NCBI RefSeq assembly: GCF_009834535.1
Contig: NC_045696.1
Location: 10,170,001-10,234,000 of the forward strand
Origin: Camelus ferus
Lineage: Eukaryota
Direction: 5' to 3'
Length of the DNA: 64,000 bases
Part shown: positions 58,384 to 59,160 of the stretch, piece by piece
How positions within the stretch are numbered: position 1 is the stretch's first letter
Layout of the letters: each line of letters opens with the position of its first letter
Notes under the pieces: generated by a model
Databases searched by the model: none
The model's input: the letters and a program-made list of their open reading frames with translations, nothing else
What the model was told of the DNA's origin: nothing
Position numbers and translations under genes: made by a program

Positions 58384-58926
58384 GTATGCTAAATGACCAA
58401 ATCATTGTCTTGTTTATTTTTCTCTTCTCAAGGAGATAGGATGGGCATTTCCACTTTTGTTTCAGCTTTCTCAGTACACCTGTTGCCTCTATATTTTGTT
58501 ATTTTGTTTAGATAAATAGCGGCTCTTTAATATTTCTCAAAGTGTGTCTTGTGACACACCAGTAAGTATTCCCTAAGATAGAAGTGGTTCGTGAGTTAAT
58601 TCTTTATTCCATTCCATACAATGCCTCACCCTTTGCTTATCCTCATCACCCCTTCCAAAGCAACTTTAAATAACCCACAGCTTGAGAAGAGGGAGAAGTA
58701 CAATTTTTTTTTTTTCCAGTTGGATCTGTTTATCAAAAAAGATGAGTGGATAAAATAGGTGTTTTTCCCCCTTCAAAATTTAACCACTTTTTATGGTGGA
58801 AATATTAATGGGCAAGTTTGTTTAAGTTGATAAGAGTTGAACTATAGCAATTGTCCACTACCATCCTATGTGCTCTATTCGTCTTTAACTAGGTCTCACA
58901 TCTCTAATAATTTCATTTTTCCTCAG

Positions 58927-59026
58927 ACCTCAGTTGGATGAGCCCATTCCACTATATGAAGCTAAAGTTTCTATGGAAGTTGTTCAGAAAAATCAAGGAA
59001 GAAAGAAGCAAGTTGTTCAACTTTAA
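58927..59026 (+). CDS. CRYZL1: CRYZL1 terminal coding exon: (R)[32 protein letters not shown]
   Basis: cctcag|ACCT...CTTTAA; the twelve coding exons sum to 1050 nt = 349 aa plus stop. Confidence 0.95.
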
Positions 59027-59042
59027 TTTTGTTCTTTCTCAG

Positions 59043-59160
59043 ACCTCAGTTGGATGAACCTATTCCAGTATTTGAAGCCAGAGTTCCCTTGGAAATTGTT
59101 AAGAAAAGTCGAGGAAGACAAAAGCAAGTTTTTACATTTTTAAGCATGTTTTCCTGCTGA
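59043..59160 (+). other. CRYZL1: Tandem duplicate of the CRYZL1 terminal exon (possible alternative last coding segment)
   Basis: ttttgttctttctcag|ACCTCAG...; 80/100 nt identical to 58927-59026 with no indels; open frame [38 protein letters not shown]. Confidence 0.75.

Follow-up and report, generated by a model that had tools for sequence, protein, structure and literature searches.

The 3′ end of CRYZL1 in Camelus ferus raises the question of whether the sequence behind the canonical stop codon conceals a second terminal exon, as the original prediction of a hidden alternative C-terminus had it, and whether such an exon is in use, was used in the past, or serves a non-coding role. The DNA analyzed here (NC_045696.1, positions 10,170,001–10,234,000; 64,000 nt, hereafter the window) carries CRYZL1 on the + strand, and all features below are given in window coordinates on that strand. 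CRYZL1 forms the structural core, a core dimer, of the FERRY mRNA-transport complex. In the available part of the report on this complex, it is designated subunit Fy-4 (bioRxiv 10.1101/2021.06.21.449265). Few kinds of alternative splicing are well supported as functional at the protein level; tandem exon duplicates are one of them, and most of those catalogued are internal; the CRYZL1 case concerns a terminal-exon duplicate that is hidden in a 3′ UTR and can be compared across placental orders.

The exons of CRYZL1 were located by tblastn with an orthologue (P0071) near 29.8, 41.3, 45.5, 50.9, 52.1, 54.1, 55.3, 56.3, and 58.3 kb, and the same orthologue comparison places the start of the terminal exon at 58927. 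When used as a query, the exon at 55276–55398 retrieved 310 mammalian and avian proteins named CRYZL1 or quinone oxidoreductase-like protein 1, 120 of which were listed; among the matches listed for this exon, Camelus dromedarius models are the best at 98%. Comparisons of protein tails draw on 214 fetched CRYZL1 proteins. As judged from the match to P0071 and from isoform tails, exon 12 occupies 58338–58383, ends with ...CILKDVMEKLSTGVF and the AG of a split Arg codon, and reads ...GGTGTTTTTAG up to 58383, before the donor gtatgc, with TTTTTAG as its last letters; the first A of either copy completes this AG to Arg. A U2-type AG acceptor 4 nt upstream, corresponding to an exon 12 start at 58334, fits isoforms in which LQ is joined to LRILKD. 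The last intron (58384–58926, GT…AG) leads to the canonical terminal coding segment at 58927–59026, which consists of an A, 32 codons, and TAA.

This segment lies within a tandem repeat. A repeat search identifies one direct repeat family with units at 58908–59023 and 59024–59139, spaced by 116 nt, ungapped, and 80% identical; Tandem Repeats Finder reports a period of 116, 1.9 copies, 0% indels, and a score of 313; and by our own count, 93 of 116 positions are identical between the head-to-tail copies. All three agree with the original prediction that the last CRYZL1 exon is duplicated in tandem at a distance of 116 nt. Copy 1 comprises 19 nt of intron (pyrimidine tract and CAG) and 97 nt of coding sequence, and copy 2 is located inside the canonical 3′ UTR. 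The copies differ at 19 of the 97 exonic and 4 of the 19 intronic positions, a total of 23, which corrects the earlier figure of 20 substitutions in 100 nt. A 20-mer that covers the acceptor and the first codons, CTCAGACCTCAGTTGGATGA, is present exactly twice in the window (58922 and 59038), while two matches were obtained in none of 100 shuffles. The similarity between the copies ends abruptly on both sides. What is found here are adjacent same-strand homologous exon copies within one gene, i.e., a tandem exon duplication.

As for any such repeat, an assembly artefact or a recent private duplication is a general possibility, and nothing more specific speaks in its favour. We consider it exceedingly improbable, given that the copies differ at 23 of 116 positions, that all 14 of 14 listed DNA or unclassified runs (five studies) hold a share of 1.00 of 44 words sampled from 58905–59400, which argues against an artefact, and that other orders carry this second copy as well, which argues against a private event. 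An origin from a transposable element was also considered, and rejected on the ground that the repeat unit is found at a single locus in the 2.09-Gb assembly.

The stop codon of copy 1 (TAA, 59024–59026) is at the same time the first three bases of copy 2. We infer that the breakpoints of the duplication were at an intronic TAA and at the TAA stop codon, and the presence of TAA at both may represent a 3-nt microhomology. Immediately 3′ of the copy 2 unit the sequence reads TTTTTAAGC, where an ancestral ...TTT TAA GC would have one T fewer. Copy 2 has probably lost its own stop codon by insertion of a single nucleotide in this T run, as suggested by the alignment of the copies and by the FKHVF frame in squirrel and tarsier.

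The last exon encodes residues 318–349 of the 349-residue CRYZL1, as counted back from the C-terminal end; the length of 355 residues given in the original prediction for the alternative isoform assumes the same 349-residue canonical protein. We take this exon to provide the final helix and the strand that returns to the N-terminal domain of the enzyme-like fold. The copy 1 peptide matches residues 325–355 of human CRYZL1 in the FERRY complex (PDB chain 7nd2_C; E 6.9e-14). The potential alternative terminal coding segment (59043–59160) consists of an A, 38 codons, and TGA; it is open from 59043 and in frame with exon 12, and holds neither indels nor an internal stop, as originally claimed. Its peptide is identical to that of copy 1 at 19 of 32 positions and aligns over all 32 homologous residues to residues 325–356 of 7nd2_C (E 2.2e-7). 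The G-R-x-K-Q-V pattern is kept, and the segment features a Ser-to-Pro change and six extra residues. Read-through of the copy 1 stop codon into copy 2 was rejected as a route to this peptide, since the period of 116 nt places copy 2 in the +1 frame.

Canonical tails were counted in 147 of the 214 fetched mammalian and avian proteins, and all 147 are near-identical to copy 1 and end in Phe. The canonical protein of the window ends in Leu (CTT, 59021–59023), and the homologous codon in copy 2 is TTT.

The splice signals of copy 2 are its own. Its acceptor, ttttgttctttctcag, precedes an exon start at 59043, and the acceptor-like site as a whole spans 59023–59042; the CAG is at 59040–59042, 14 of 17 positions between −20 and −4 are pyrimidines, in accordance with the pyrimidine tract and CAG described originally, and 29 nt before the acceptor (59012–59040) are free of AG. 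The sole branch-point-like motif, TTAAT (59023–59027; A at 59026), is located 17 nt before the exon and was created by the junction between copies 1 and 2 itself. The copy 1 acceptor (tttttcctcag before 58927) is preceded by three such motifs, TTAAC (A at 58888), CTCAC (58898), and CTAAT (58907), which lie 39, 29, and 20 nt upstream. Within 70 nt before its AG (58925–58926) there is a single other AG (58891), and none that competes with it. The first AG after the branch point is usually the one used. By this rule, and with three motifs before copy 1, the upstream acceptor should therefore dominate, and the copy 2 acceptor would be used only if the branch forms inside copy 1. Transcripts that do use 59043 could persist, because their stop codon is in the last exon and would not trigger nonsense-mediated decay. 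Each copy begins with ACCTCAG (58927–58933 and 59043–59049), so that a second CAG is present 7 nt inside the exon. In Myotis lucifugus X4 and X5 (P0049 and P0048), copy 1 is read in the +1 frame with a stop a few codons into copy 2, and these models may reflect use of this shifted acceptor.

The intact acceptor-like site with its AG-free stretch, the 38-codon frame in register with exon 12, and the alignment to 7nd2_C over 32 residues would all fit a copy 2 that works as an alternative terminal exon in this lineage, with exon 12 joined to 59043 in some transcripts. The product would then carry a different but homologous C-terminal helix and strand with a six-residue extension, which could tune the FERRY core dimer. 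The same junction has been modelled elsewhere: in isoform X7 of Arvicola amphibius (P0106), an NCBI gene model, the ...GIFR of exon 12 is joined directly to copy 2, which shows that the annotation pipeline judged this junction plausible in the vole. However, the tail beyond the junction is frame-shifted and unrelated in this model, which speaks against a working exon, as does the Ser-to-Pro change within the camel segment. A search for homologues of the copy 2 peptide gave two candidates, none of which was scored, in a search insensitive enough to miss the canonical tails (phmmer E ~1e-4). We judge a working exon in this lineage to be unlikely, for reasons to which the substitution pattern and the comparison with other mammals add below.

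In RNA libraries, four runs hold 0.98 and a fifth holds 0.82 of the 44 words sampled from 58905–59400, shares of words in contigs that carry no information on junctions; a run labelled “bat metagenome” (share 0.04) has no evidential value. Copies 1 and 2 are continuous in the RNA-library contigs, as expected if copy 2 is in the 3′ UTR of the main mRNA, and these contigs also cover the further 3′ UTR (59161–59400), reaching about 59400 or beyond. From about 59500 onwards lie the CpG island of DONSON, which begins ~350 nt after copy 2, and its first coding exon, with the DONSON promoter starting ~400 nt downstream of the copy; neither AATAAA nor ATTAAA is present between 58900 and 61731 of the window. 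Three Camelus dromedarius models (P0005, P0006, and P0008) join exon 12 (...LSTGVFR) directly to DONSON and skip both copies of the terminal exon, over a span from 58383 to about 60600; CRYZL1–DONSON read-through looks likely.

A third possibility is that copy 2 has a non-coding role as a 3′ UTR element, as a decoy or competing acceptor that affects the choice of 3′ end, or through an effect on DONSON read-through. The lack of a canonical poly(A) signal before DONSON and the camel models that splice exon 12 straight into DONSON exons are in line with such a role. So is the fact that copy 2 and the UTR are recognizable across orders in any frame (21 of 27 residues in Galemys; 15 of 22 for the UTR downstream of copy 2 in P0123), and that an acceptor-like CAG can be read, by eye from translated junctions, in the tails of Carlito, Myotis, and P0123. 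On the other hand, no Rfam family matches the region 56500–61000, and a non-coding role leaves the conservative amino-acid pattern described below unexplained. We rate it as quite improbable.

The differences between the copies were examined for traces of selection. The 19 coding differences are distributed over the codon positions as 9, 5, and 5, i.e., without an excess at third positions, and the NG86 comparison of the copies gives 5 synonymous and 14 non-synonymous changes (dS 0.29, dN 0.21, omega 0.73). The intronic part (4 of 19) has diverged about as much as the exonic part. When 19 random substitutions were simulated on copy 1, the frame stayed open in 40% of the trials (P about 0.4), and replacements numbered 12.3 on average compared with 13 observed; the original prediction had itself cautioned that an open frame of ~100 nt can survive by chance. 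Neither the rate nor the open frame therefore requires selection, and the omega value, the flat codon-position counts, and the unreduced number of replacements all count against a working exon.

The kind of replacement tells a different story. Over the 13 replacements, the BLOSUM62 score averages +0.92, compared with −0.3 to −0.6 in the simulations (P 0.0003–0.006 over eight model variants with a transition bias of 1–5 and either copy as the start). With PAM250 the corresponding value is P 0.0014, and when the same base changes are permuted over sites it is P 0.0012. These values come from a small sample, and from a case that may have drawn attention in part through the conservative look of its changes, on which the original prediction remarked. 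Six replacements are common to the window and Myotis (L9V, Y10F, K13R, M16L, V18I, and N22S) and must be old; all six score +1 or better (P 0.002–0.005). Since the replacements are far more conservative than chance would give, we take them as a sign that copy 2 has for part of its past been translated and exposed to selection; a copy still at work in this lineage would show the same pattern.

To follow copy 2 in other mammals, we traced non-canonical isoform tails that match copy 2 of the window and the unique sequence following it; predicted proteins are the basis of every comparison between species. Ten copy 2 sequences were obtained, from bats, desman, whale, squirrel, vole, and tarsier together with two contig-derived proteins. 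Copy 2 tails are present in Myotis myotis X2 (P0083, also P0082), Myotis daubentonii X2 (P0209), Cnephaeus nilssonii (P0043), Balaenoptera physalus (P0072), Galemys pyrenaicus (P0111), Urocitellus parryii X3 (P0055), Arvicola amphibius X7 (P0106), Carlito syrichta X5 (P0124), and two unnamed Logan-contig proteins (P0123 and P0214). A profile of copy 2 tails had added two sequences, and an exhaustive HMMER search with the copy 2 peptide added one; on the protein representatives, this search returned five matches at E <= 0.001, comprising four canonical tails and P0214. Orthologous DNA was not recovered from a metagenome scan, where 124 pattern matches and 4 loci were all due to chance (intron-derived pattern FFLRPQLD), and scans of prokaryote genomes (40 pattern matches, 1 chance locus in a Methanoregula MAG) and of viruses (69 pattern matches, none confirmed) were likewise negative.

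The copy 2 tails of bats, tarsier, and squirrel share replacements that are specific to copy 2, e.g., PVFEA compared with PLYEA, and are therefore orthologous copies and not the products of independent duplications. Since copy 2 is present in bats, a eulipotyphlan, a whale, rodents, and a primate, the duplication predates the split between Laurasiatheria and Euarchontoglires and, on these predicted tails, is at least as old as Boreoeutheria. Timetrees place this split at roughly 90 My, and the 20% divergence between the copies fits an age of ~90 My.

P0214 is a 48-residue protein from a Logan contig of 2021 nt. It starts in frame 0 of copy 1 (MEVVQKNQG), shifts to the +1 frame (EERSKLFIFNIL), and enters copy 2 in frame 0 (PQLDEPVPVFEARASLEIVHKSQGT). 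This corresponds either to a species with indels at the end of copy 1 and at the junction, or to contig errors.

The original prediction had proposed to test preservation of the frame across mammals, and in the traced tails the frame is not preserved. With tails mapped ungapped onto the three frames of the window by tblastn, a change of frame within the unit is seen in 6 of the 10 traced sequences (Urocitellus, Carlito, Arvicola, Balaenoptera, Cnephaeus, and P0123). Squirrel and tarsier pass from frame 0 to frame 2 near 59086, a shift that is common to both and therefore probably old in Euarchontoglires. The vole reads frames 0, 1, and 2 in succession, P0123 reads 1, 2, and 1, and whale and Cnephaeus pass from frame 0 to frame 1 after ...PV; these latter two shifts fall at a short T run in proteins modelled ab initio on draft genomes, and may reflect sequence errors. 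In the two Myotis species, colinearity extends over 26 codons (21 of 26 and 19 of 26 identical) up to a stop where the window has CAA; it extends over 27 codons in Galemys, in the +1 frame alone, and over 24 codons in P0214 (19 of 24 identical). Even when whale and Cnephaeus are left out, the copy 2 peptide is, as far as predicted tails tell, not conserved across mammals.

That Myotis and P0214 are colinear in frame 0 fits a working exon, but the broken frame in 6 of 10 other sequences and the stop in Myotis weigh against it. The original claim is partly supported: the duplicate with its acceptor and open frame, the conservative replacements, and the Arvicola X7 model speak for it, while the age of the copy, the frame broken in 6 of 10, an omega of 0.73, and the RNA-library contigs in which both copies are continuous speak against it. 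A fuller version, in which a second C-terminal exon was gained more than ~90 My ago, was translated, died in Euarchontoglires and other groups, and is intact and used in the present lineage, strikes us as doubtful. If it applied, i.e., if the copy was translated and then lost elsewhere but used here, the locus would allow the birth and death of an alternative terminal exon to be followed as a dated series.

We lean towards the explanation that copy 2 is an old duplicate of the terminal exon, was translated at one time, is now drifting, is intact here by luck, and acts at most as a minor alternative acceptor, and hold this to be somewhat better than an even proposition. In the proposed course of events, a 116-bp tandem duplication by the time of the boreoeutherian ancestor would have copied the last 19 nt of the intron and the whole terminal coding part. 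The upstream copy, which hardly differs between birds and mammals, would have remained the terminal coding exon. The downstream copy would have become 3′ UTR, given that the spliceosome selects the first AG that follows the branch points of the intron; it would have kept a 3′ splice site that still looks usable and can serve as a distal alternative acceptor, the choice of which would swap the last helix and strand for a homologous one. The conservative early replacements suggest that, for a while after it arose, the copy was translated and under selection. Later drift would then have introduced frameshifts or a stop in most lineages where copy 2 is visible, and left it free of indels and stops in this genome, where it would give rise to at most a minor isoform. 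Two points do not sit easily with drift. The conservative replacements, intact acceptor, and 38-codon frame would equally fit a copy that is still functional here, and the slow evolution of copy 2 and the UTR between orders in any frame (copy 2 of the window is identical at 21 of 27 residues to Galemys in the +1 frame and at 21 of 26 to Myotis in frame 0) hints at a constraint that drift leaves unexplained.

Homologous alternative exons derived from tandem exon duplication have been catalogued for human (PMC8373072, PMC9741552), and tandem exon duplications have been surveyed genome-wide, including UTRs and terminal exons (PMC9013439). In the available parts of the former two reports, an ancient origin and high expression are ascribed to the catalogued events. 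Like the pairs described there, the CRYZL1 exon was duplicated in tandem together with its acceptor, and the copy is homologous, in frame, and ancient, with conservative replacements. Unlike them, the CRYZL1 case is terminal, the copy is located in the 3′ UTR of the first copy, and the choice would be between two 3′ splice sites and not between cassettes. The frame of the CRYZL1 copy also varies among mammals, in contrast to the age and high expression ascribed to the catalogued events. CRYZL1 is absent from the supplements searched (one file each of PMC8373072 and PMC9741552, and ten files of PMC5740500; the tables of PMC9013439 were outside this comparison), and none of 8.4 million full texts mentions CRYZL1 together with “exon duplication”. 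In Drosophila, pip and PGRP-LC contain duplicated alternative terminal exons that are expressed and regulated by competing RNA structures, according to the available part of PMC9013439. As far as that description goes, the tandem homologous terminal exons of CRYZL1 are similar, with the difference that the CRYZL1 case is known from sequence alone.

Decayed exon duplicates, or pseudo-exons, remain in introns or UTRs. The CRYZL1 copy resembles these in its lineage-specific frameshifts and stops, in the absence of a coding rate signature, and in being picked up occasionally by gene predictors. Unlike pseudo-exons, it is without a disabling change in this genome, and its early changes look selected. 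The duplicate is implicit in several database isoforms and has apparently not been described as such, and copy 2 accounts for a number of unusual CRYZL1 isoforms predicted in public databases. If copy 2 is used, annotations of the CRYZL1 3′ UTR miss a protein variant; if it is unused, it illustrates how weakly a splice site and an open frame of ~100 nt argue for coding.

Two further features of the gene were noted. Intron 11 (56407–58337) has a perfect U12-type donor, /ATATCCTTT, directly after ...AAGTATCTTT at 56406, together with a branch-site-like CCTTAAC at 58316–58322 and a 3′ end AC at 58336–58337. AT-AC splicing of this intron gives T+GT, i.e., Cys, and the conserved ...GKYLCILKD, while use of the AG at 58332–58333, 4 nt upstream, gives a frame-shifted tail, ...YLSTYLKR..., that is carried by many database isoforms, e.g., P0029 (a cluster of 160 members). 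Human CRYZL1 is tabulated with a U12-like AT-AG intron in the available part of PMC4176328. At the other end of the gene, the region 28300–30100, just upstream of and over CRYZL1 exon 1 (29799–29918 by tblastn), is GC-rich with long spurious open frames, and is presumably the promoter CpG island of CRYZL1, possibly shared with a divergent neighbour gene.
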